From Bacillales bacterium UBA5455 (lineage in GTDB: Bacteria > Bacillota_I > Bacilli_A > RFN20 > CAG-826), in assembly GCA_002427365.1 (NCBI GenBank), contig DIQT01000015.1, forward strand, positions 77,222 through 141,221: a DNA stretch of 64,000 bases, given 5' to 3'. The position numbers and the translations under genes were made by a program. The notes below the pieces were generated by a model. It did not search any database, was not told the origin of the DNA, and was given only the letters and a program-made list of their open reading frames with translations. Positions 18,115-42,458 of this stretch are shown here, one piece after another. The stretch's first letter is position 1, and each line of letters starts with the position of its first letter.

Positions 18115-18152
18115 AGTACTTAACTGGTAACCATTTGACAAAAACAGTAAAA

Positions 18153-18180
18153 ACACCGATAATAATAGGTGTGCTTTTTT
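18153..18180 (+). terminator. hairpin plus T-run after recO (overlaps a possible glyQS promoter TTGACA-17-GATAAT at 18135-18163)
   Basis: ACACC-N11-GGTGT followed by GCTTTTTT. Confidence 0.4.
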
Positions 18181-18200: not shown

Positions 18201-19568
18201 ATGGCAGAATATCCATTCGACAAGACTGTTACGCACCTTGTCACGAGCGGCTTTGTTTTCCAAGGCTCAGAAATTTATGGCGGTTTATCAAATACGTGGG
18301 ACTATGGACCACTAGGTTGCGAAGTTAAAAATAACATTCGTAAATATTGGTGGAAACGGTTTGTTCAACAATCACCATTAAACGTTGGGTTAGATTCCGC
18401 GATTTTAATGAATCCAAAAGTTTGGGAAGCGACGGGGCACGTTTCAACGTTTAACGATCCGTTAGTGGATTGTAAATATTGTAAATCACGGTATCGGGCG
18501 GATACATTAGTTGAAAATCAATTTCCTGATGTGGAAGTTGAAGCCTTAGATACAGCTGGGTTAAATGAATTTATTAAAAACCATAATGTTACTTGTCCAA
18601 ATTGTGGCAAAAGTGAATTTACCGAAATTCGCCAGTTTAATATGATGTTTAAAACGCATATTGGCGTTACGGAAGGGTCACAAAACCAAGTATATTTACG
18701 GCCCGAAACCGCGCAAGGAATATTTGTTAACTTTAATAATATTCAACGGTCCCAACGGTTAAAAGTCCCCTTTGGCGTCGCTCAAGTTGGTAAATCGTTC
18801 CGTAATGAAATTACTCCCGGAAACTTTATTTTCCGGACACGGGAATTTGAACAAATGGAACTCGAATTTTTCTGTAAACCAGGTACGGACCTCGATTGGT
18901 TTAAATATTGGAAAGACTTTATGTGGCAATTCTTACTCGATATGGGGATTACGGGCGAAAAACTTCGTTACCGTGACCATACACCACAAGAATTAGCTTT
19001 CTATTCGAAAGCGACAACCGATATTGAATATAAATTCCCCTTTGGTTGGGGCGAAATTTGGGGTATTGCGGACCGGACCGACTATGATTTAAAGCAACAT
19101 GCCGATTATAGTGGTAAACGGCTCGATTACCTTGATGCTGAAACGAATGAACGGTACACACCTTATTGTATTGAGCCATCCGTTGGACTTGATCGACTCT
19201 TCTTAATGACATTAACTGATGCGTACGAAGAAGAACAATTAGAAAAAGACACGCGGATTGTTTTACACCTTCACCCCCGCTTAGCGGCATATAAGGTCGC
19301 TGTCCTTCCTTTAGCGAAGAAACTTGGCGATAAGGCAAGTGAAGTTACAACGCTGCTAAGTAATCACTTTATGGTTACATATGATGAAACGGGATCGATT
19401 GGCAAACGCTACCGGCGCCAAGATGCAATTGGTACTCCTTATTGCGTAACGATCGATTTTGATACGTTAGAAGATGAATCGGTTACAATTCGCGAGCGTG
19501 ATTCGATGGAACAAATTAGATTACCAATTAGCGAACTTGTTAAGTTTATTCGGTCTAAAGTCGAATAA
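18201..19568 (+). CDS. glyQS: Glycine--tRNA ligase (class II, single-chain GlyQS type)
   Basis: 455 aa. The N-terminus has [28 protein letters not shown] and the class II motifs are present. Confidence 0.9.
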
Positions 19569-19619: not shown

Positions 19620-21437
19620 ATGAGTCAAATAGACCAAAAAACATTGTTTGATGATATTGTCCGTCAGGCAAATATTGTTGATGTAATTAGTAGTTATATC
19701 AACGTTGAACGTCAAGGCCGAAACCATCGTGCGCTTTGTCCTTTTCATGATGATAAAAATCCTTCCTTAATGATTTCCGATGATAAACAAATTTTTAAAT
19801 GCTTTGTTTGTGGTGAAGGTGGGAATGCTTTAACCTTTGTGCAAAAGTATGAAAAACTTAGTTATCGCCAAGCCGCCGTTAAACTGGCAAATTTAATTGG
19901 ATATCGCGATGAACGGCTCGAAAACTTACAGAAGAAGTCGCCACTCCAAATTGAATTAAGTCCTTATTTTGAAGCAATGAAGGATTTAGCGAGCTATTAC
20001 CAATATGGTTTATTAACTGATGAAGGTAAGCAAGCGTATGATTATTTAAAAAACCGTGGGCTTAGTGATGAAATGATGAATAAGTATGGACTTGGTTATG
20101 CATTAAACACACCAGGGGCATCGCATGAATATTTAGTGAAAAAAGGCCATCTCGTCCGGGTTTTAGAAGATTTAGATTTATTTGTTGGTAGTGATAAAAC
20201 GACTGATCGCCTCCATGGCCGCGTTATTTTTCCAATTACAGATATAAATGGCCAAACGATTGGTTTTAGTGGCCGGATTTTATCAGGTGATAAAACACAA
20301 GCCAAATATTTAAACTCGAGTGAATCAAAAATCTTCCATAAAGGAACAATTTTATTTAATTTAGCGAATGCCGCGAAAGTGGCTAAGCGTGATGGCTATG
20401 TATATTTAGTCGAAGGATTTATGGATGTTTTTGCCCTTGATCATATTGGGATTAATTCCGCAGTAGCGTTGATGGGAACAGCATTTAGTAAAGACCACAT
20501 CCGTATTTTACGTCAATTAAATGTCGAAATTCGTTTAGCCCTTGATGGTGATGCCGCGGGGCAATTAGCGATGATGAAGGTCGCTAGCTTGCTTGATGAA
20601 GCAGGTTTAAAGTTTAAAATGGTTGATGCGGCTGGCGAAAAGCGTGATAGTGATGAAATTTATTTAGAATCCGGTTCCGATGCGTTATTAGCTTATTTAA
20701 ATAACCTTATTACCTATCCTGAATTTGCGCTTAATTACTACGCAAATACGAATACTCTAACAAATTTAGCGGAACGCCGTGATTTTGTCGCGAAGATGAT
20801 GCCAATTATTCAAAAAATTACTTCACCGTTAATTCGTGAAGAAATCTTAGCTAAATTAGCGAGTTTATCAGGCTTTGCTTTAGCGTCAATTAAACGGTCA
20901 TATGAAAATTTTGCCGCGAAAAATGCGCAAGAAATAAGTGCCTATCCAAGTGATTACCATCCAGAACGCGAAACATTACGCCGGTTTACAATGGCGGAAC
21001 GGTATTTACTCCAAGCAATGATCGCTGATGAACGGGCGATTACATATTACGAACAACATATTAAATATTTTTATGATGATATTTATCGGATAATCGCCGA
21101 ATATTTACTCGATTATTACCATAAATATGAAAAACTTGAAATAGCGGGTGTTATTAACGATTTACAAAGTGCGGACAATTTGCCATTACAAGAAGAAGTT
21201 ATTCAAGAGTTTTCGACGCTTGCGCTTCAAAAAAATGTGCCAAATTATTCAATTGAAGCCATGGACGAATATAAAGCAGCGATCGATGAAGAACGGGAAG
21301 AAAAACTTGCAAAAATGCGCTTAGAAAATTTACAAAAAGGGAAAAGTGATGACGAAAAAGCCCAAATTTTTAATGATTATTTAAAAGCGCGCGCAAAAGC
21401 CCAAATGATGAAGAAAAATTCGGACGGGGAGAGTTAA
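19620..21437 (+). CDS. dnaG: DNA primase DnaG
   Basis: Zinc-binding CPFHDDKNPSLMIS...CFVCGEGGN, a Toprim domain (EGFMDVFAL, DGDAAG) and a C-terminal helicase-binding domain. Confidence 0.93.
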   Translation: MSQIDQKTLFDDIVRQANIVDVISSYINVERQGRNHRALCPFHDDKNPSLMISDDKQIFKCFVCGEGGNALTFVQKYEKLSYRQAAVKLANLIGYRDERLENLQKKSPLQIELSPYFEAMKDLASYYQYGLLTDEGKQAYDYLKNRGLSDEMMNKYGLGYALNTPGASHEYLVKKGHLVRVLEDLDLFVGSDKTTDRLHGRVIFPITDINGQTIGFSGRILSGDKTQAKYLNSSESKIFHKGTILFNLANAAKVAKRDGYVYLVEGFMDVFALDHIGINSAVALMGTAFSKDHIRILRQLNVEIRLALDGDAAGQLAMMKVASLLDEAGLKFKMVDAAGEKRDSDEIYLESGSDALLAYLNNLITYPEFALNYYANTNTLTNLAERRDFVAKMMPIIQKITSPLIREEILAKLASLSGFALASIKRSYENFAAKNAQEISAYPSDYHPERETLRRFTMAERYLLQAMIADERAITYYEQHIKYFYDDIYRIIAEYLLDYYHKYEKLEIAGVINDLQSADNLPLQEEVIQEFSTLALQKNVPNYSIEAMDEYKAAIDEEREEKLAKMRLENLQKGKSDDEKAQIFNDYLKARAKAQMMKKNSDGES

Positions 21438-21492: not shown

Positions 21493-22863
21493 ATGGCAAG
21501 AAAAAAAGACGGTCCTTCAACATCAAAAAACCAGATGTTGAATAGTAAGATTTTAGTTAACGATGAACAATTTGAGACATTAGAAGATATTGTTCACCAG
21601 CTTGAAGAAAAAGCCAAAAATATTGGGTATATATTACAAGAAGATATTTTTGATATGACAAGTCATCTTGAATTAAGTGATGATGACCTTATTGGTTTAA
21701 TTAATTATTTTAAAGAAAAAAATATCGAAGTTGATACGGATATCGATGAATTAGATATTGTAATACCCGATTTAGATGAACTAAAAGAAGAATTTCTCGG
21801 CGCAAATGAATCGGAGTTTAATTATGAATTTAATGAAGAAGACGAGCTTGAGGATGAAGCAACAAATTCATATCACTATGAAGATGAAGAGTTAGACGAC
21901 GAAAAGGATGAGGATGAAAGTAACGAAATTCCGATTAATTACCGTAAAGACACTTTCCGAATGGTTGATTCAGCGCAAAAATATTTCCATGATATTGGCA
22001 ATCACCGCATTTTAACAAAAGATGAGGAAATTGCGCTCGCAAAAGAAATTGAAGCGGGGCGCGAAGCGAAAGCGCGTCTTGATGCGGGTGTTGGCCAAAA
22101 AGGCGATGATTTCTTAGTTTTTCAAGGTGATGCGGCGCGCGAAACATTAACAACATCGAATTTAAAACTTGTTGTAAGTTTTGCGAAAAAGTATACAAAC
22201 CGCGGCTTACACTTATTAGATTTAATTCAAGAAGGTAACTTAGGTTTAATGCGGACAGTCGATAAGTTTGATTATCGGCTCGGCTATAAATTCTCAACAT
22301 ATGCATCATATTGGATTCGGCAATATATTACGCGGGCGATTCATGACCAAGCGCGGACAATCCGCATTCCGGTTCATATGGTCGAAACGATTAATAAAAT
22401 TAATAAAGTTGAAGGAATTTTATTTCAAGAATTAGGTCGAAATCCTAGCTACCAAGAAATAAGTGAAGCGATGGATGGCGAATATACGCCTGCACGAATT
22501 GAAGAAATTAAATTATTATCAATTACACCGCTAAGTTTAGATGTTCCCGTTGGTGAAGATGAAGAAAGTTTTATTGGTGACTTTGTCGAAGATAAAGACA
22601 CGCTATCGCCCGTTGAATATACAAGCAATATTATGCAAACGGAGCAACTATATGAAATTATGGCGGATTGCCTCACCGACCGCGAAGATATGGTCATTCG
22701 CTTACGGTACGGATTAGATAATAATTCCCCGATGACGCTTGAAGAAGTTGGTAAGGTATTTGGGGTAACGCGCGAAAGAATTCGCCAAATTGAAACAAAG
22801 GCGATTCGAAAAATGCGCGCGCCATCACGGTTAAAGCGAATGCAAGAATATCGTGGTGATTAA
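21493..22863 (+). CDS. Group-1-like sigma-70 paralog (full length, divergent regions 1.2 and 2.4)
   Basis: Regions 1.1 (acidic), 1.2, 2 ([55 protein letters not shown]), 3 and 4.2 (TLEEVGKVFGVTRERIRQIETKAIRKMR) are all present. It shares the lineage-specific GDDFLVF insertion with the downstream copy. Confidence 0.85.
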   Translation: MARKKDGPSTSKNQMLNSKILVNDEQFETLEDIVHQLEEKAKNIGYILQEDIFDMTSHLELSDDDLIGLINYFKEKNIEVDTDIDELDIVIPDLDELKEEFLGANESEFNYEFNEEDELEDEATNSYHYEDEELDDEKDEDESNEIPINYRKDTFRMVDSAQKYFHDIGNHRILTKDEEIALAKEIEAGREAKARLDAGVGQKGDDFLVFQGDAARETLTTSNLKLVVSFAKKYTNRGLHLLDLIQEGNLGLMRTVDKFDYRLGYKFSTYASYWIRQYITRAIHDQARTIRIPVHMVETINKINKVEGILFQELGRNPSYQEISEAMDGEYTPARIEEIKLLSITPLSLDVPVGEDEESFIGDFVEDKDTLSPVEYTSNIMQTEQLYEIMADCLTDREDMVIRLRYGLDNNSPMTLEEVGKVFGVTRERIRQIETKAIRKMRAPSRLKRMQEYRGD

Positions 22864-22926
22864 ATTAGAAAATAAGGTAATAACAACTACTTATTTGAAA
22901 ATATATAACAAGAGAGGGTTAAAAAT

Positions 22927-24333
22927 ATGGGAAAAAAGAAAAAGAACGAAGATATCGAATTTCTCGATGATGATGAGTTAGAAACAGAATCCTTTGAAGA
23001 TGAAGATGATATTGACACATTAGCATTTGATTTAGATGATGAATTAGAAGAACTCGCAAAAGGTAAAAGTAAAATTTCTAAAACGCTTACTAATTTACAA
23101 ACATTAGATGAAATTAAGGAAGATTTATTAAAGCTTGGCAACAAACGCGGTTTTTTACTCCAAGAAGAAATTTTGGATGCGGTTCGCCACGTTGAATTAA
23201 GTGATGAAGAATTCGACGAATTAATGGATTATTTCCGCGAAAATGATATCGATGTCGACACCGAAGAGGAAGAAAACGACGAATTTGCTTTCACCGAAGA
23301 TGATGAAGAAGATGATGACGATGAAGTTCACGATTCTTTCTATGATGATGAAGAGGAAGATGACGATGAATTCGAGTTTTCATCAATGGAAAAAGTTCAA
23401 GCGGCGGCGACCGATGATATTAAAACAACCGATCCAGTTAAACAATATTTCCAAGATATTGGCAAATACGTTTTATTAACCGCTGAGGAAGAAGTTTTAA
23501 TTGCCAAACGGATTGAAATTGGCCGTGAAGCTGAAATTCGAATTAGCATTGGCGAAGAAGAACCCGGCGATGATTTCCTTGTGTTTGACGCAAATGCCGC
23601 GCGCGATGAAATGATTGTTGCGAACTTACGGTTAGTCGTTAATATTGCTAAACGGTATTTAAACCGGGGTTTAAGCTTCTTAGATTTAATTGAAGAAGGC
23701 AACTTAGGACTTATGAAAGCGGTCGAAAAGTTCGACTACACTAAAGGTTTTAAATTTTCAACGTATGCAACATGGTGGATTCGTCAATCAATTACCAGAG
23801 CAATTGCGGACCAAGCGAGGACCATTCGAATTCCGGTCCATATGATTGAAACAATAAACAAAGTTTCGCGGGCCCAACGGCAACTTGTTCAAGTTTTAGG
23901 AAGAGATCCGACCGCGGAAGAAATTTCCGAAAAACTTGAAGGAACGATGTCTGCCGACCGGATTCGCCAAATTCAACGCATTGCCGTCGAACCAATTAGT
24001 TTAGAAACCCCAATTGGTGAAGAAGGCGATAGTAATATTGGTGATTTTGTCGAAGATGAAACAAGTGTTACGCCAATTGACCATATTAACGATGTTTCGT
24101 TAGTGGAAAAAGTTTATGAAATTATGGAAGATACGTTAACGGACCGCGAAGCTGATGTTATCCGCTTACGGTATGGCTTAGATGGTAACCGGCCGGAAAC
24201 CTTAGAAGAAGTTGGCAAACGCTTTGGGGTAACGCGTGAACGTGTCCGGCAAATTCAAGCAAAAGCAATTCGGAAAATGCGTTCACCATCACGGTTTAAA
24301 AAATTAAAAGAATATTACGATGGAAATGAATAG
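22927..24333 (+). CDS. sigA: Primary sigma factor RpoD/SigA (canonical copy)
   Basis: Region 2.4 ([33 protein letters not shown]) is near-identical to B. subtilis SigA. Region 1.2 is [11 protein letters not shown]. Region 4.2 is [28 protein letters not shown]. It follows dnaG as in Bacillus. Confidence 0.85.
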
Positions 24334-24982
24334 CAAGTTATCTTCTCGGCTCTTAGCAATTATTAAATATGTTGATCCTAGCGATATCGTTATCGATGTT
24401 GGTAGTGATCATGGTCAATTAGCAATCGAACTCGCTAGAAGTAATGCTGCACAACGCGTTTTAGCATCGGAAAATAAACGTGGCCCCTTTAAAACTTTAG
24501 CAGCGGCGGTTAAACATAGCCAACTAACTAATTTAAACGTCATGTTAACCGATGGATTAAATAACATCCCAGCGGACATAAATACGGTCATTATCGCCGG
24601 GATGGGTGGAGTAACGATTAATGAAATAATTACTCGAAAAACTGCACCAATTACACAAATAAAGAAACTTATTTTATTGCCGCATGGTGGTGCGCCGCTA
24701 TTACGAAAAACAGCAAGTGAATTAGGTTTTTGCTTAATTGCCGAAGAAGTAATTAAGGATGATAACCACTTTTATGAGTTATTAGTGTTTGTTCCTGGAA
24801 GTATTACTTATACAAGCGACGAACTCCTCTTTGGCCCGATAAATTTACTTAAGCAATCTCCAAATTTTCGCTTAATGTGGGAAAAAGTTTATGAAGAAAA
24901 TGAATATATCTTAGCAAAACCGCTTAACCCTAAGCGGCGAAAAGAAATCGAAGCACTCCAAGAAAGGATTAAAACATTATGA
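24320..24982 (+). CDS. trmK: tRNA (adenine22-N1)-methyltransferase TrmK (YqfN)
   Basis: [15 protein letters not shown] and IIAGMGG motifs align to B. subtilis YqfN. The position after sigA supports the call. It overlaps the sigA 3' end. Confidence 0.8.
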
Positions 24983-25755
24983 TTAGTTCACGTTCATTAT
25001 TAATTAAGCTTGGGAAACGGTTTCCTCGCCACCTTGCACTTAAAAATCGTGATCCATACGTTGGTCATCAAGTTGGGCAAATGCCGTTAACGATTAGCAA
25101 AATTTTACTTTGTTTAGATTTTGATTTAACCGTGCTTGAAGAAGTAAAAATTCATCGGCCAGATTTAGTTATTACGCATCACCCCTTTATTTATGGCTTA
25201 AAAGCAAAAGTCTTCGCTAATGACCCGGTTAAAGCGTTAATCGCGCAGCAAATGGAAGAAATGGGGATTCCAGTTTATTCTTACCATACGAATTTTGATG
25301 AAGCAGCTGGTGGAATGAATGATGCGTTAGCTTTAGCGCTAGGATTAGAAAATATTACTCCGTTAGCTAGTGCCCCAATGGCGCGCGGTGGTGAATTACC
25401 CACTCCCTTACCAATTGATAAATTTGCCAAGTTTGCGTTACGTGCATTAAACGTTGATTATGGGCTTTTAATTGATGAAGGAAGCGAAGTAATTCGGAAA
25501 GTGGCCATAATTGGTGGCGGTGGAAGTCGTTCATGGTATATCGCTAAAGACGAAGGGTATGATATTTATTTAAGCGGGGACGTTCCCCATCATGTCCGGC
25601 GTGATATCGTTGAAAGTCGCTATAATTATCTTGATTTACCGCATGAAGTCGAACGAATCTTTATGCCAACAATGAAAAAGATCCTCTTAGAAATCGATGA
25701 GGACCTCGAAATTGTTATCGTTAATCACGAACAACTACCAAAAGTTATTCGTTAA
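24979..25755 (+). CDS. Nif3-like dinuclear metal center protein (YqfO homolog)
   Basis: VITHHPFIYG and SYHTNFD motifs of the Nif3/GTP cyclohydrolase 1 type 2 family. Synteny with trmK supports the call. Confidence 0.8.
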   Translation: MISSRSLLIKLGKRFPRHLALKNRDPYVGHQVGQMPLTISKILLCLDFDLTVLEEVKIHRPDLVITHHPFIYGLKAKVFANDPVKALIAQQMEEMGIPVYSYHTNFDEAAGGMNDALALALGLENITPLASAPMARGGELPTPLPIDKFAKFALRALNVDYGLLIDEGSEVIRKVAIIGGGGSRSWYIAKDEGYDIYLSGDVPHHVRRDIVESRYNYLDLPHEVERIFMPTMKKILLEIDEDLEIVIVNHEQLPKVIR

Positions 25756-26623
25756 ATTGTTTTAAATAGTCAATTACCGCATTTGTTAATTCAAGCGGTG
25801 AAGATGCGCCGGCGGCAACTCCGGCGTATTTTTTATTTTTAAGTTGTGCGGGGTTAATATCATTAACCGTTTGTATTTGATAAACATCCGCATTTGGATG
25901 ACTAAGTTTGGCGACTTGGACGAGTTTTTTTGTGTTATTCGAATGAAATGAGCCAACAATATAAATAATATCAACATCGAGCGGAATATTTTTTACCGCA
26001 TTTTGCCGTAATCGTGTCGCTGAGCAAATTTCATTTTCAATAATTGCTCCAGGCAGATAAGTTAAGATTTCATCATGGATTTTCGCTAATTCATCAAGCG
26101 ATAAAGTCGTTTGATTAATAACAACGGGCGTTAAATCGCTAATTTGTGCATAGTTAAAGGGCAAATTGATATCAAAAAGAAAAATATTCTCGGCATTAAT
26201 TGATAATGCGGCTTTCGTTTCTGGGTGACCCGTTTGGCCAATATAAATAATTTGATGGTTATTATTTAATGCATTAATAATAACATCATGGGTAACTTCA
26301 ACTTTTGGACACGTCGCATCAACATAACTTAAACCGCGGTTACTAATCAGTTCTTCATAAACTTTTGGGTGACCATGCGCGGTAAAAATAATAATTGTAT
26401 CATCGCTTACATGCCGTAAAAAGTCTTCATCCGCACTATTTGGGCGTTCTAATGTCGAAATTCCATGTTTTGCGAGAAATTCAATAACAAATTCATTATG
26501 AACAAGCATCCCTAAAATTGCGACCGGATGGTTGGGATTATTTTTTTTCGTATCAAGGGCAATATTAATGGCCCGTAAGACACCTTCACAATAACCATGG
26601 GGATTACAAACGTGTACTTTCAT
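25745..26623 (-). CDS. ispH: 4-hydroxy-3-methylbut-2-enyl diphosphate reductase IspH (LytB)
   Basis: N-terminal HGYCEGVLRAI (GFCxGVxRA) and conserved His/Cys ligand positions. 292 aa. Confidence 0.85.
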   Translation of the reverse strand: MKVHVCNPHGYCEGVLRAINIALDTKKNNPNHPVAILGMLVHNEFVIEFLAKHGISTLERPNSADEDFLRHVSDDTIIIFTAHGHPKVYEELISNRGLSYVDATCPKVEVTHDVIINALNNNHQIIYIGQTGHPETKAALSINAENIFLFDINLPFNYAQISDLTPVVINQTTLSLDELAKIHDEILTYLPGAIIENEICSATRLRQNAVKNIPLDVDIIYIVGSFHSNNTKKLVQVAKLSHPNADVYQIQTVNDINPAQLKNKKYAGVAAGASSPLELTNAVIDYLKQFNE

Positions 26624-29030: not shown

Positions 29031-30086
29031 TTAGATTTTGTCGATTTCTTCAATTAAAGCAGCGAGAGCGTCTTCCTCAAGGACCGTCCGAATTACTTCA
29101 CCTTTTGAAAAAATTACCCAGCGGTTTTTTCCACCGGCAATTCCGATATCCGCTTGTTTAGCTTCGCCTGGGCCATTAACAACACAGCCCATCACCGCGA
29201 CACTAATTGGTTTATTAATTGTTTCAAGATGGTTTAAGACTTCGCTAGCGAGTTTTTCAACATTTACTTCCGTCCTTCCACATGTTGGACAACTTATTAA
29301 GGTTGGATAATTTGGATATAACTCTAAATCATGGAGTAACCGTTTTGCCGCAATGATTTCCTCTTCGGGTTCAGCGGTTAGAGAAATTCTAATTGTATCA
29401 CCAATTCCTTCTAGAAGCATCGGCGCTAAGCCCGCAGCTGAGCGGATAATACCAATTTCTTTAGTTCCGGCTTCCGTTATTCCTAAATGAAGGGGATAAG
29501 GGAAAGTAGAACTAGCTAAGCGATTTGCTTCGATCGTTAATAAAACATCGGTTCCTTTTAATGAAAGAGCAATATCATAAAATTCATACTTTTCTAAGAT
29601 GTCGACATGCTTTTTCGCACTAGCGACTAAATCCTCTGCGCTAAGTGGATGAGTACCATCATTAATTGTTTTATCAACTGATCCTGAGTTAATCCCAATT
29701 CTAATGGGAACATGATGTTTTTTCGCTGCTTCCACGACTTTTTCCACATTTTCTTCTTTACCGATGTTGCCGGGGTTAATTCTTACCCCATCAACACCAG
29801 CTTCAATCGCCGCTAACGCAAGCCGATAATCAAAGTGAATATCCGCGATTAAGGGGATGGCGACTAGCTTTTTTATTTCTTTAATCGCTAAGGCGTCTTT
29901 TTCATCCATTACGGACAGCCGCATTGTTTCCGCACCTAAGCTCGCACACCGATTAATTTGGGCAGCGACTTCATTAATTCGTTCCGTTTTAATGTTACAC
30001 ATTGATTGAATTACAACTTTATTTTGTCCGCCAACTTGCAAATTTCCAAGTTTGACAGGCCGAGTTTTGCTTCTAAGATTCATCAT
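29031..30086 (-). CDS. ispG: 4-hydroxy-3-methylbut-2-en-1-yl diphosphate synthase IspG (GcpE)
   Basis: KVVIQSMCNIKT and the C-terminal CPTCGRT (CxxC..C) 4Fe-4S ligands. The start at 30086 (MMNLRSK) follows a GAGGAAAAA RBS; the ORF-track start at 30143 is upstream of the RBS. Confidence 0.9.
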   Translation of the reverse strand: MMNLRSKTRPVKLGNLQVGGQNKVVIQSMCNIKTERINEVAAQINRCASLGAETMRLSVMDEKDALAIKEIKKLVAIPLIADIHFDYRLALAAIEAGVDGVRINPGNIGKEENVEKVVEAAKKHHVPIRIGINSGSVDKTINDGTHPLSAEDLVASAKKHVDILEKYEFYDIALSLKGTDVLLTIEANRLASSTFPYPLHLGITEAGTKEIGIIRSAAGLAPMLLEGIGDTIRISLTAEPEEEIIAAKRLLHDLELYPNYPTLISCPTCGRTEVNVEKLASEVLNHLETINKPISVAVMGCVVNGPGEAKQADIGIAGGKNRWVIFSKGEVIRTVLEEDALAALIEEIDKI

Positions 30087-30206
30087 TTTTTCCTCATCTA
30101 TAATAATATAGCATTTTACTTTGTTTTTCAGTTGTAAATGCACATAAATTTGCTACAATATTAATCAAATCTATGATATTATTATCACGGTAGTAAGGAG
30201 ATTTAT

Positions 30207-32147: not shown

Positions 32148-32852
32148 CTAATCAGCGTTAGATTGGCCAATTTTATTTTCAGTTCCATTTAGTAAACGAG
32201 CGATATTGCCGTGATGTTGATAAACGATAAAACCCGCTAAAAGGAATAACGCAAGCGCGAAAACTAATGGATTTGTATACGAATAGTAGTAACCAAAATT
32301 TTGAAGTTCAGGAACTAAATATATTAACGATATTAAGGCAAGTATGAAAGATGTTACCATTGATGAAAGGGAAACATATTTTTTAATACCAACAATTAAA
32401 ACAAAGATGATTAAACCAACAACGGTGAAAATCCAGTTGCTTGCGACAATGATGCCAGCATAGAAGGCAACACCTTTTCCGCCTTTAAATTTAAAGAAGA
32501 GCGGGAAATTATGGCCAAGCGTTAAAGTGAATAAGGTAACTAAGCTAATAACTTGCGCCCAAATAGCTTCGGGGCCACTAGTTAAATTAAAACCAAGCAT
32601 TACGCCATTTAGTGCCCAGTACATACCAGCGCTTTTGATAATATCAAGAATAATAACGAGAAGGCCAATTTTTGGACCAAGCACCCGCGCGGTATTTGTG
32701 CCTCCCGCATTATGGGAACCATGGTCACGAACATCCTTCCGATAATAGTATTTACTAATTAAAATTGAATTCGAAAGCGATCCTAATAGATAGCCACTAG
32801 GAATTGCGATTATTCCGAAGACAACTAATATTTTGATTAATTCACTACTCAT
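32148..32852 (-). CDS. plsY: Glycerol-3-phosphate acyltransferase PlsY
   Basis: GSHNAGGTN (GSGNxGATN motif), FKGGKGVA and a polytopic membrane topology. It is adjacent to parE as in B. subtilis yneS. Confidence 0.9.
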   Translation of the reverse strand: MSSELIKILVVFGIIAIPSGYLLGSLSNSILISKYYYRKDVRDHGSHNAGGTNTARVLGPKIGLLVIILDIIKSAGMYWALNGVMLGFNLTSGPEAIWAQVISLVTLFTLTLGHNFPLFFKFKGGKGVAFYAGIIVASNWIFTVVGLIIFVLIVGIKKYVSLSSMVTSFILALISLIYLVPELQNFGYYYSYTNPLVFALALFLLAGFIVYQHHGNIARLLNGTENKIGQSNAD

Positions 32853-41170: not shown

Positions 41171-41503
41171 ATGGGAAGACGACCAAATTTAGTTAATAAA
41201 ATCGAACAAGCATTAGAAGACAAAAAAGCGACCGATGTATCAGTTGTCTATATGCGGAATAACACAAAAAAAGCGATTACTGACTATTACATCATCGCGA
41301 CCGCGAATAATGAGCGGTTACTAAATGCCCTTGCCGATGTCGCAGTTGAAACGATTATAAAAAATGGCGGCAACATTCATCATATCGAAGGGAAGAAAGC
41401 AAATAGCGAATGGGTCTTAGTCGATGCTTATAATATAATTGTTCATTTGTTTACACCACAAGCTCGAATCGATTATGATCTTGATGGCTTAGAAAAAAGA
41501 TAG
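41171..41503 (+). CDS. rsfS: Ribosomal silencing factor RsfS (Iojap, YqeL)
   Basis: 110 aa. DYYIIATANNERLLNALAD and the VHLF context are typical of RsfS. Synteny after nadD/yqeK supports the call. Confidence 0.85.
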   Translation: MGRRPNLVNKIEQALEDKKATDVSVVYMRNNTKKAITDYYIIATANNERLLNALADVAVETIIKNGGNIHHIEGKKANSEWVLVDAYNIIVHLFTPQARIDYDLDGLEKR

Positions 41504-41517
41504 TTTAGAAATTTTAA

Positions 41518-41548
41518 AACATCCAGTTAGTGAATTGGATGTTTTTTT
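41518..41548 (+). terminator. rho-independent terminator after rsfS
   Basis: AACATCCA-N9-TGGATGTT followed by a T7 run. Confidence 0.7.
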
Positions 41549-41684
41549 ATTACATACACATAAATTTAAGAGAACAATCGGAAACCGTTATAATTTTAAA
41601 TTTGTATTAACTTCGTATAATCTATATTATGTAAACTAAACTATATAAAAGGCGCATTAATAAAGGGTTTTAAACGATTGATTA

Positions 41685-41730
41685 TAAAAAAGTGGATAAG
41701 CAACCTAATTTAAGGTACGGACTTATCCAC
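41685..41730 (-). terminator. long-loop hairpin plus U-run, likely terminator of the MazF-like gene
   Basis: GTGGATAAG and CTTATCCAC form a perfect 9-bp inverted repeat separated by 21 nt, followed on the minus strand by TTTTTT. Confidence 0.45.
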
Positions 41731-41795
41731 AATTTCACTAACTTATTAACAACTAAATATATACTAATTAACCACTTTAACAGCTTAAACTACTA

Positions 41796-42458
41796 CTATT
41801 CGGAATAAATAAGCTTGCCATCAATTGTTGTTTGTTTAATCGCATTAAGGATTTTATCCATTTGTTCTTTCGTTAAAACAGCGACTGGTTCATGATCCGC
41901 AAACTCTCTTTTTTCCTTATCTTTTCTAATTAAGCCCCGGCGAAAAATCCGCAACTTATCAATTCCACGTTTTTGATTAAAGACCGCGATTGTTTTCACA
42001 TTCCCCATTAAGCCAGGGATTGGTCCAATTTCAACGTCGCTTGTTGGGTTGCTATTTGCCTTATGCATCGTTTTTAATGGAACGACTTCAACAATCTGAT
42101 TCGTTTCTAAGGATGGACGGACAACGACCGCGTAATGACGACCACGTAATTCACTACCGACGCCAATACCAAAATCGACTTCATAAACTTCACCCGGTAG
42201 TAAATCATACATTAATTGTCTCGTCATGTTACTTTTTACATAGGTGAGTAATTGCCGTAAGTCTTGGAAATATCTGTTAGCGGTTTCTAGTTCCGCAACA
42301 TAAATTTCCATTTTTTCATCATTTGTATAACCGTAGGGACGGTTTCCTTTGTCCGACATTCGGCGTTGTTGGCGTAATTTTTCTTCATCGCGATCGTCGT
42401 CATCATCATCATCAGCTGGTGGGGCTATTAAGCCTTCTTTGTTTAAAATACTTTTCAT
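41796..42458 (-). CDS. MazF/PemK-fold (CcdB/MazF superfamily) domain protein with an 85-aa acidic N-terminal extension
   Basis: Residues about 90-215 align to B. subtilis EndoA/MazF: PGEVYEVDFGIGVGSELRGRHYAVVVRPS matches [29 protein letters not shown], and LTKEQMDKILNAIK matches LDDEMMDKVDEALQ. The N-terminal 85 aa include a D7 run and KLRQQRR. The start at 42458 follows a GAGAAAGGAAA RBS. Confidence 0.55.
   Translation of the reverse strand: MKSILNKEGLIAPPADDDDDDDRDEEKLRQQRRMSDKGNRPYGYTNDEKMEIYVAELETANRYFQDLRQLLTYVKSNMTRQLMYDLLPGEVYEVDFGIGVGSELRGRHYAVVVRPSLETNQIVEVVPLKTMHKANSNPTSDVEIGPIPGLMGNVKTIAVFNQKRGIDKLRIFRRGLIRKDKEKREFADHEPVAVLTKEQMDKILNAIKQTTIDGKLIYSE

Follow-up and report, generated by a model that had tools for sequence, protein, structure and literature searches.

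What does a second full-length sigma-70 gene do directly upstream of rpoD, where did it come from, and which of the two copies is the housekeeping one? The question is posed by a stretch of 64,000 nucleotides (the window, to which all coordinates below refer) from Bacillales bacterium UBA5455, an uncultured, Erysipelotrichaceae-like gut/fermenter bacterium; the window covers positions 77,222 to 141,221 of contig DIQT01000015.1, and it forms part of a 312-kb contig from a fermentation metagenome. Here two intact primary-type sigma-70 genes follow the primase gene dnaG head to tail on the + strand, called sigU (upstream, 21493..22863, 456 residues) and sigD (downstream, 22927..24333, 468 residues) in the following. 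The pair had been noticed by a model reading the letters of the DNA (the original prediction), which took it for a recent duplication that left the cell with a second primary sigma factor of altered promoter melting preference. Two such genes are indeed present, and since at least ten independent assemblies contain the pair in intact form, it is no product of misassembly. The reading that we favour, with moderate confidence, is that the locus combines a housekeeping sigma factor, sigD, with an old tandem paralogue, sigU, that would act as a dispensable accessory primary-like sigma factor.

Which copy is the housekeeping sigma factor

Over 446 aligned residues, sigU and sigD share 47% identity (BLASTP, E = 9e-137), and each matches the Pfam models of regions 1.2, 2, 3 and 4 above cut-off. 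Against the curated RpoD model (NCBIfam TIGR02393, RpoD_Cterm, cut-off 354) sigD scores 374.2, whereas sigU reaches 341.8; the best NCBIfam matches of sigU are RpoD models, with all RpoD equivalogs below cut-off. The sigU of a sister species, described in the next section, scores 314.1 and is named only "sigma-70 family" by the NCBI pipeline, which names the adjoining gene RpoD. In addition, sigD matches the Pfam model of region 1.1 (30.7 bits), keeps every invariant residue that contacts the -10 element, carries the canonical region 2.4 motif YATWWIRQ that had been pointed out for it, and has its best solved relatives in the SigA structures of B. subtilis (7ckq). Because it passes the RpoD cut-off, matches region 1.1, has a canonical region 2.4 and evolves slowly, sigD is by these characters the housekeeping RpoD, a group 1 factor.

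The divergent upstream copy is less easily classified. All best matches of sigU are RpoD/SigA proteins (52% identity to the RpoD of relatives; E = 7e-90 to the SigA of PDB entry 7ckq), and over regions 1.2-4 it shows the close similarity to group 1 that is expected of a group 2 factor. As judged from the features considered here, sigU does not fit group 1, since it scores below the RpoD cut-off, is without an invariant residue and is apparently dispensable; nor does it appear to fit the formal definition of group 2, whose members lack region 1.1 (PMC4598750), since it keeps a region-1.1-like domain. An acidic region 1.1 had been proposed for both copies. In sigD, region 1.1 comprises residues 57-111 and there is an acidic linker. 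For sigU the signals diverge: Pfam PF03979 finds no match, yet residues 27-81 of sigU (21571..21735, net charge -11) align without gaps to region 1.1 of relatives at 40-53% identity, and a profile that includes the sigU N-terminus matches region 1.1 of the SigA structures 8x6f and 5mww at E ~5e-7. By charge count, the linker that follows in sigU (residues 82-158, 21736..21966) has a net charge of -27. The acidic linker of sigD is variable in length among strains: the variant P0232 has 456 instead of 468 residues owing to an in-frame deletion of 12 residues within ~23290-23420, a low-complexity length polymorphism.

In annotating these genomes, either gene could be mistaken for the housekeeping rpoD, but only the downstream copy qualifies.

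Origin and age of the duplication

The same pair, in the same order, is present in a sister species (loci L010-L013, annotated as Erysipelotrichaceae bacterium metagenome-assembled genome, MAG), where the arrangement is dnaG-sigU-sigD-trmK with proteins of 390 (sigU) and 429 (sigD) residues. The sigD proteins of this species, P0122 and P0123, are the closest database relatives of sigD (74-75% identity, 77-78% in the multiple alignment). Between the two species, sigD is 77% and sigU 48% identical, amino-acid identity being 61% for dnaG, 53% for recO and 44% for trmK, and synonymous sites are saturated (synonymous divergence, dS, of at least 1.3). The next relatives (P0002, P0005 and P0006) show identical synteny with a single sigma gene.

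In a neighbor-joining (NJ) tree of the conserved core, bootstrap values are 100% for the pair of U proteins, 100% for the pair of D proteins, 92% for U and D together, and 93% for the grouping of these with the P0002/6/8 clade. Rare characters give the same picture. The derived states YF (in region 1.2), AK[RK]Y and RGL, together with a 24-residue insert, occur only in the four U and D proteins. This insert, located between regions 1.2 and 2.1 (22060..22131 in sigU, where it reads REAKARLDAGVGQKGDDFLVFQGD; 23524-23595 in sigD), has the same length in all four, contains the motif GD[DE]FLVF and is absent from the closest single-copy relatives, which bears out the suggestion that the GDDFLVF motif of both copies marks a lineage-specific insertion. 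A one-residue insertion (EIMxD[CT]LTDRE) unites the U and D proteins with the P0002/6/8 clade, and the P0002 clade is also the one to which sigU is closest (67%).

Because of the orthologous pair in the sister species, the bootstrap values, the rare characters and the single-copy state of the next relatives, these comparisons show that sigU stems from an rpoD duplication that took place in an ancestor shared by the host species and one sister species. The original prediction was thus correct in deriving the copies from a duplication within the lineage. Its view of the duplication as recent does not stand: the copies share 47% identity, carry no gene-conversion tracts and have orthologues in a species separated at dS of at least 1.3. 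Recent gene conversion between sigU and sigD was rejected, since the longest runs of identical nucleotides are only 16-27 long and no window has raised synonymous identity. Likewise, recent horizontal acquisition of sigU was rejected, since its guanine-plus-cytosine content, overall (GC) and at third codon positions (GC3), equals that of the neighbouring genes and since it has the clade-specific indels in common with its relatives.

Among 5.8 billion proteins sigU was found in two species-level lineages only, and a search with the sister sigU yielded no further orthologues, so that the upstream copy is not a common, already characterized group 2 sigma factor. The apparent best match to the sister sigU, P0250, was rejected as an orthologue together with P0252, both being chimeric assemblies with internal repeats. 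The protein P0250, annotated as "RpoD", repeats regions 2-3 and P0252 repeats region 4; both look like assembly chimeras, and the repeats inflated the search score.

Residues kept and altered in sigU

Residues are given in E. coli numbering, checked against Y430, H455 and R584, and conservation was measured in 221 relatives, in which 171 columns are at least 95% conserved. In the stretch covering regions 2.3-2.4 and the start of region 3.0 (22291..22398; the canonical counterpart in sigD is 23755-23862), sigU carries T432S, W433Y, A438Y and A444H, and it has K423L as well; all five positions are 99-100% conserved among the relatives, and position 433 is W in 221 of 221 and Y in sigU. The motifs YASYWIRQY and AIHDQ, singled out earlier as changes at -10 recognition and melting positions, are therefore present and do affect such positions. 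Kept in sigU are Y430, W434, R436, Q437, T440, R441 and R451, the extended -10 residues H455/E458, and the core-binding region 2.2 (DLIQEGNLGLM). The -35 helix is retained as had been predicted (R584, E585, R586, R588 and Q589); it lies in region 4 (22672..22830 in sigU, 24136-24294 in sigD), and region 4.2 reads VTRERIRQIETKAIRKMR in sigU and has an 18-residue counterpart in sigD.

The sister sigU has K423L and T432S in common with sigU, retains W433, and carries R436S, A438S, I439M, T440I, D445N and R448Q. In both orthologues the first helix of region 3 has exchanged ITRVQ for INKVE, and the region 3.2 loop is changed as well, but both keep the core-binding, -35 and extended -10 determinants. 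Counted over the 171 conserved columns, sigU deviates at 36 and its sister orthologue at 54, sigD at 19 and the sister sigD at 21, compared with a median of 0 and a maximum of 13 in the other relatives. With 19 deviations, sigD exceeds the SigA of Bacillus, Listeria and Enterococcus (12-13) and is thus unusually derived too, so that both paralogues have diverged after the duplication, sigU much further.

Region 1.2 of sigU (21967..22059, beginning DSAQKYFHDIGNHRIL...) had also been described as divergent. This is only partly the case: the V->A and K->Q changes at its start are indeed unusual, affecting positions that are 100% and 98% conserved, while the H..IG.H pattern is common to sigU and to the single RpoD of its nearest relatives (P0002, P0005 and P0006), and the divergence of region 1.2 is thus largely ancestral and only in part derived.

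What the altered residues could mean can be gauged from work on other sigma factors. W433 is the wedge that replaces the flipped-out -11A (PMC4496690), and K423, likewise altered in sigU, is a neighbour of the -11A pocket. In E. coli, W433 substitutions slow open-complex formation (PMC1919498; PMC4496690). Q437H and T440I alter -12 specificity, and R436 affects the binding of duplex -12 DNA (PMC2613000). Judged by helical periodicity, positions 433, 436/437, 440/441, 444 and 448 would share the same side of the region 2.4 helix. In view of the published mutant data, an altered melting or -10 specificity of sigU is plausible. Following this line, sigU would bind core RNA polymerase and find promoters through their -35 and TG elements as sigD would do, but would differ from sigD in nucleating melting and in how it reads the -10 element at its upstream edge (-12/-13), from which an overlapping but shifted promoter set of the sigU holoenzyme, or the same promoters with other opening kinetics, would follow.

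Selection on sigU and its disruption in some samples

Between the two species, the non-synonymous divergence (dN) is 0.46 for sigU and 0.166 for sigD, compared with 0.34 for dnaG, 0.41 for recO and 0.57 for trmK, and all open reading frames are intact; the value of sigD is the same as that of glyQS. Thus, the rate of change in sigU is that of an ordinary functional gene, and the rate in sigD that of a gene under high constraint. Over the conserved core, the distance between the species is 0.586 for sigU versus 0.158 for sigD, a ~3.7-fold difference. Within the host species, dN/dS of sigU is 0.17-0.25 (~8.5 synonymous and ~8.5 non-synonymous differences), next to ~0.05 for dnaG and 0.21 for trmK; the corresponding value of sigD is zero by construction, as the loci were picked for an identical sigD protein. 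Nearly all amino-acid variants of sigU among strains fall into the N-terminal acidic part and avoid regions 2-4. These patterns indicate that purifying selection acts on sigU and preserves its reading frame.

In a minority of samples the frame is nevertheless disrupted. A C->T change at 21976 turns codon Q162 of region 1.2 (21976-21978) from CAA into TAA (Q162*) in two independent public samples, SRR8925770 and SRR33579947; the respective loci (L104:4245-5615 and L105:2245-3615) differ in haplotype at four other sites and have an intact sigD alongside. Three of the 19 sigU protein variants in the cluster are truncated gene calls of 204 residues, the third being P0224. Because Q162* occurs in two independent samples, sigU is probably dispensable and would not be an essential principal sigma factor. 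The possibility that one copy is a pseudogene therefore applies to a minority of samples only. The proposal of a second primary sigma factor is right insofar as sigU is primary-like; with its score below the RpoD cut-off, its fast core and its nonsense allele, however, sigU behaves as a dispensable accessory sigma factor rather than as a co-equal housekeeping one.

Weighing the possible roles of sigU

Several observations weigh against an accessory sigma factor with a role of its own and must be kept in mind. The phylogeny was obtained by NJ only, with both paralogues on long branches, and the within-species dN/dS rests on ~17 substitutions. The nonsense alleles mean that sigU can be lost. In the sister sigU, region 1.1 and the linker have become near neutral, with net charges of -3 and -1, and the protein has lost its C-terminal tail. 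W433Y is a conservative exchange of one aromatic residue for another and may change little, and the region 2.4 changes differ between the orthologues (W433Y/A438Y/A444H versus R436S/I439M/T440I/D445N/R448Q), which could point to relaxed constraint rather than to a common new specificity.

Much of this would be expected if sigU were a redundant duplicate drifting towards loss, with no distinct role, its region 2.4 changes being due to relaxed constraint and its persistence to nothing more than its place inside an essential operon. The ~3.7 times faster core, the 36 and 54 deviations at conserved positions, the unlike region 2.4 substitutions of the orthologues, the missing acidity and tail of the sister copy, the same Q162* on different haplotypes in two samples, and the three truncated calls among 19 variants all agree with such a drift. 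It is, on the other hand, hard to reconcile with a reading frame that has stayed intact in both species despite synonymous saturation, as an unconstrained frame of 400 codons should have gained many stops. Moreover, the dN of 0.46 lies within the range of functional neighbours (0.41 for recO and 0.57 for trmK), the within-species dN/dS is ~0.2 with strain variation outside regions 2-4, and both orthologues have preserved the residues for core binding and for the -35 and extended -10 elements. We therefore regard drift as unlikely. A role could also be sought in modulation, with sigU competing with sigD for core polymerase and for promoters with -35 and TG elements, opening DNA poorly and thereby damping or timing housekeeping transcription. 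The combination of kept core-binding and duplex-recognition residues with a changed wedge (W433) and a changed K423 would suit a competitor of this kind, the slowed open-complex formation of W433 substitutions in E. coli (PMC1919498; PMC4496690) agrees with it, and encoding in one gene string with sigD would fix the sigU:sigD ratio. Yet Y430 and W434 are intact, the replacement of W433 is itself aromatic and the sister orthologue retains W433; literature searches found no direct precedent for such a role. In our estimate, a mainly modulatory sigU is quite improbable.

An entirely different history would make sigU a member of an ancient family of second sigma factors beside rpoD, spread across Erysipelotrichales-like Bacilli, whose likeness to sigD is due to gene conversion. 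The background for this was a set of 80 loci of species-representative Bacillota genomes, among the matches listed, obtained by a scan of contigs with sigD and including neither the host nor the sister species. A second sigma gene lies directly beside rpoD in six of these 80 loci (L025, L027, L028, L029, L030 and L048). In the five Bacilli loci the extra gene lies between dnaG and trmK, directly 3' of rpoD (L025:6396-7655, L027:6106-7515, L028:6392-7675, L029:3599-5008 and L030:6293-7378), and several of the extra copies have T432S with W433 replaced by Y, F or P (such as YASYWI in L025 and YASFWI in L030), or a changed R436; none passes any curated NCBIfam cut-off. An NJ tree groups all divergent copies, but it was rejected as proof of one ancient family, since a Clostridia pseudo-sigma joined the cluster, which points to long-branch attraction; the comparison was based instead on indels and on distances to canonical sequences. 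By these, the divergent copies are mutually 36-51% identical and thus no closer to each other than to canonical sigma factors: the extra copies of L025, L028 and L030 are ~40% identical to everything, whereas sigU is nearest to the P0002 clade (67%) and the extra copy of L027 nearest to its own partner (67%), which makes the latter an independent duplication. The one-residue indel in EIMxDCLTDRE places sigU in its own clade, the divergent copy of the other lineages stands downstream and not upstream of rpoD, and conversion tracts are lacking at the DNA level. A single ancient family is accordingly a very doubtful explanation. The recurrent changes at positions 432, 433 and 436 could instead reflect convergence. 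A broader and rather speculative extension, which we hold to be not very likely, is that the dnaG-rpoD-trmK string of uncultured Erysipelotrichales-like Bacilli has repeatedly undergone tandem duplication of rpoD, each extra copy being reshaped at promoter-opening positions (T432S, W433->Y/F, R436->S/T/K), so that nature would have arrived convergently at a second, "housekeeping-like" holoenzyme that reads the -35 element alike but differs in melting and in its behaviour at -12.

Some of these background loci deserve a remark of their own. At L048, a Clostridia MAG, three sigma-type genes stand in a row after dnaG (L048:3523-6798), without a trmK-like gene beside them; canonical sigA copies of 361 and 368 residues flank a degenerate sigma-like gene of 340 residues with only faint matches to regions 2-4. 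The suspicion that the extra sigma factors of L025 and L028 carry a degenerate second region-2-like segment at the N-terminus was dropped, as Pfam gave no confirmation.

Organization of the locus

On the + strand the gene string reads era-recO-glyQS-dnaG-sigU-sigD-trmK-NIF3, a Bacillus-type order. The primase gene dnaG (19620..21437, 605 residues), directly 5' of the sigma pair, was identified as an open reading frame and by the Pfam domains Zn_ribbon_DnaG, DNAG_N, Toprim and DnaB_bind on the identical gene of locus L001. A Shine-Dalgarno-like sequence, AAAGGAAAA, is located 8-9 nucleotides 5' of the ATG of sigU. The spacer between sigU and sigD (22864..22926, 63 nucleotides) holds the ribosome-binding site of sigD, GAGAGGG, and the open reading frame of a trmK-like methyltransferase (24320..24982, + strand) overlaps the end of sigD by 14 nucleotides and forms the conserved downstream boundary of the locus.

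A hairpin scan of the + strand found no terminator-like site in any intergenic gap from glyQS to trmK, including those between dnaG, sigU and sigD; the terminator-like sites at 19282-19302 and 19644-19671 are both inside coding sequence. Since sigU is part of the dnaG-rpoD string and no terminator intervenes, sigU and sigD are probably co-transcribed. In a consensus scan no separate promoter was recognizable 5' of sigU, and the only strong promoter-like match near the sigma pair, also the best sigma-A-type site in the region, is TTGACA-17-GATAAT 5' of glyQS (18135..18163, + strand), a consensus match that is a possible promoter of a glyQS-dnaG-sigU-sigD-trmK transcript. As promoter-like sites are fewer in the region than in shuffled sequence, no claim is possible for an internal promoter of sigU or sigD. 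Rfam gave no family at gathering score across the 64 kb, and thus no tRNA, rRNA or riboswitch, nor a T-box in the 86-nucleotide gap 5' of glyQS.

Further along the window, at ~41200-41800, the GC skew switches sign and the cumulative skew peaks. The long open reading frames 5' of ~41.2 kb are on the + strand except 25745-26623, 29031-30143 and 32148-32852, and those 3' of ~41.8 kb are all on the - strand. This joint switch of strand and skew would fit a replication terminus or the boundary of a large inversion. In one strain-level assembly (L018:6830-7925) no ispH is called and the DEAD-box helicase gene downstream is moved by 155 nucleotides relative to other assemblies; ispH or its vicinity may thus contain an insertion or be disrupted.

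Comparison with known sigma factor systems

The neighbourhood era-recO-glyQS-dnaG-sigma-trmK-NIF3 is that of the dnaG-sigA macromolecular synthesis operon of B. subtilis, in which, however, there is a single sigma gene, without an insert between regions 1.2 and 2.1. No account of tandem sigA genes in Erysipelotrichaceae came up in literature searches. The closest parallel within the Bacillota is offered by C. difficile, in which SigA1 (CD1455, after dnaG) is the housekeeping factor of the growth phase and SigA2 (CD1498) an accessory factor of stationary phase, both being listed in group 1 (PMC7438776; bioRxiv 10.1101/2021.06.06.447298). There too, a genome contains two full-length SigA-type sigma factors with the housekeeping one beside dnaG. 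In contrast to sigU, which stands in tandem upstream with no terminator in between, SigA2 is encoded ~40 genes away and has its own SigH-dependent promoter, and because the duplication that gave rise to sigU is confined to two species, orthology of sigU with SigA2 is unlikely.

Actinobacteria provide a further comparison: SigB of M. tuberculosis and HrdA/C/D beside HrdB in Streptomyces are derived from rpoD, non-essential, retain regions 1.2-4 and recognize promoters that resemble the ones used by the primary sigma factor (PMC4598750; PMC5742136). They resemble sigU as primary-like paralogues of rpoD with regions 1.2-4, and differ from it in lacking region 1.1, of which sigU keeps a similar domain. 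The actinobacterial group 2 factors also generally keep the W433/W434 pair, whereas sigU has Y at 433. In the cyanobacterial RpoD2-6 / SigB-E and in RpoS of E. coli, duplicates of the primary sigma factor have likewise become condition-specific with overlapping promoter recognition (PMC7527412, PMC2758279, PMC4598750). Their origin by duplication of a primary sigma factor is that of sigU; these are, however, old, widespread and well-characterized families located away from rpoD, while sigU occurs in two species-level lineages and inside the dnaG-rpoD string.

Taken together, sigU is a new example of a known route to extra sigma factors and not a new kind of system. The derivation of extra sigma factors from the primary one is a well-known way to retune global transcription, and most of those studied are ancient and lack region 1.1, next to which the pair described here is a lineage-restricted case with what appears to be the full primary architecture. 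It offers naturally occurring exchanges of the W433 wedge and within the helix that reads position -12, among them T440I of the sister species, which is a classic specificity mutant in E. coli. Comparing sigU and sigD biochemically would show, on natural variants of a Gram-positive enzyme, in what way promoter opening and the preference at -12 depend on these residues.

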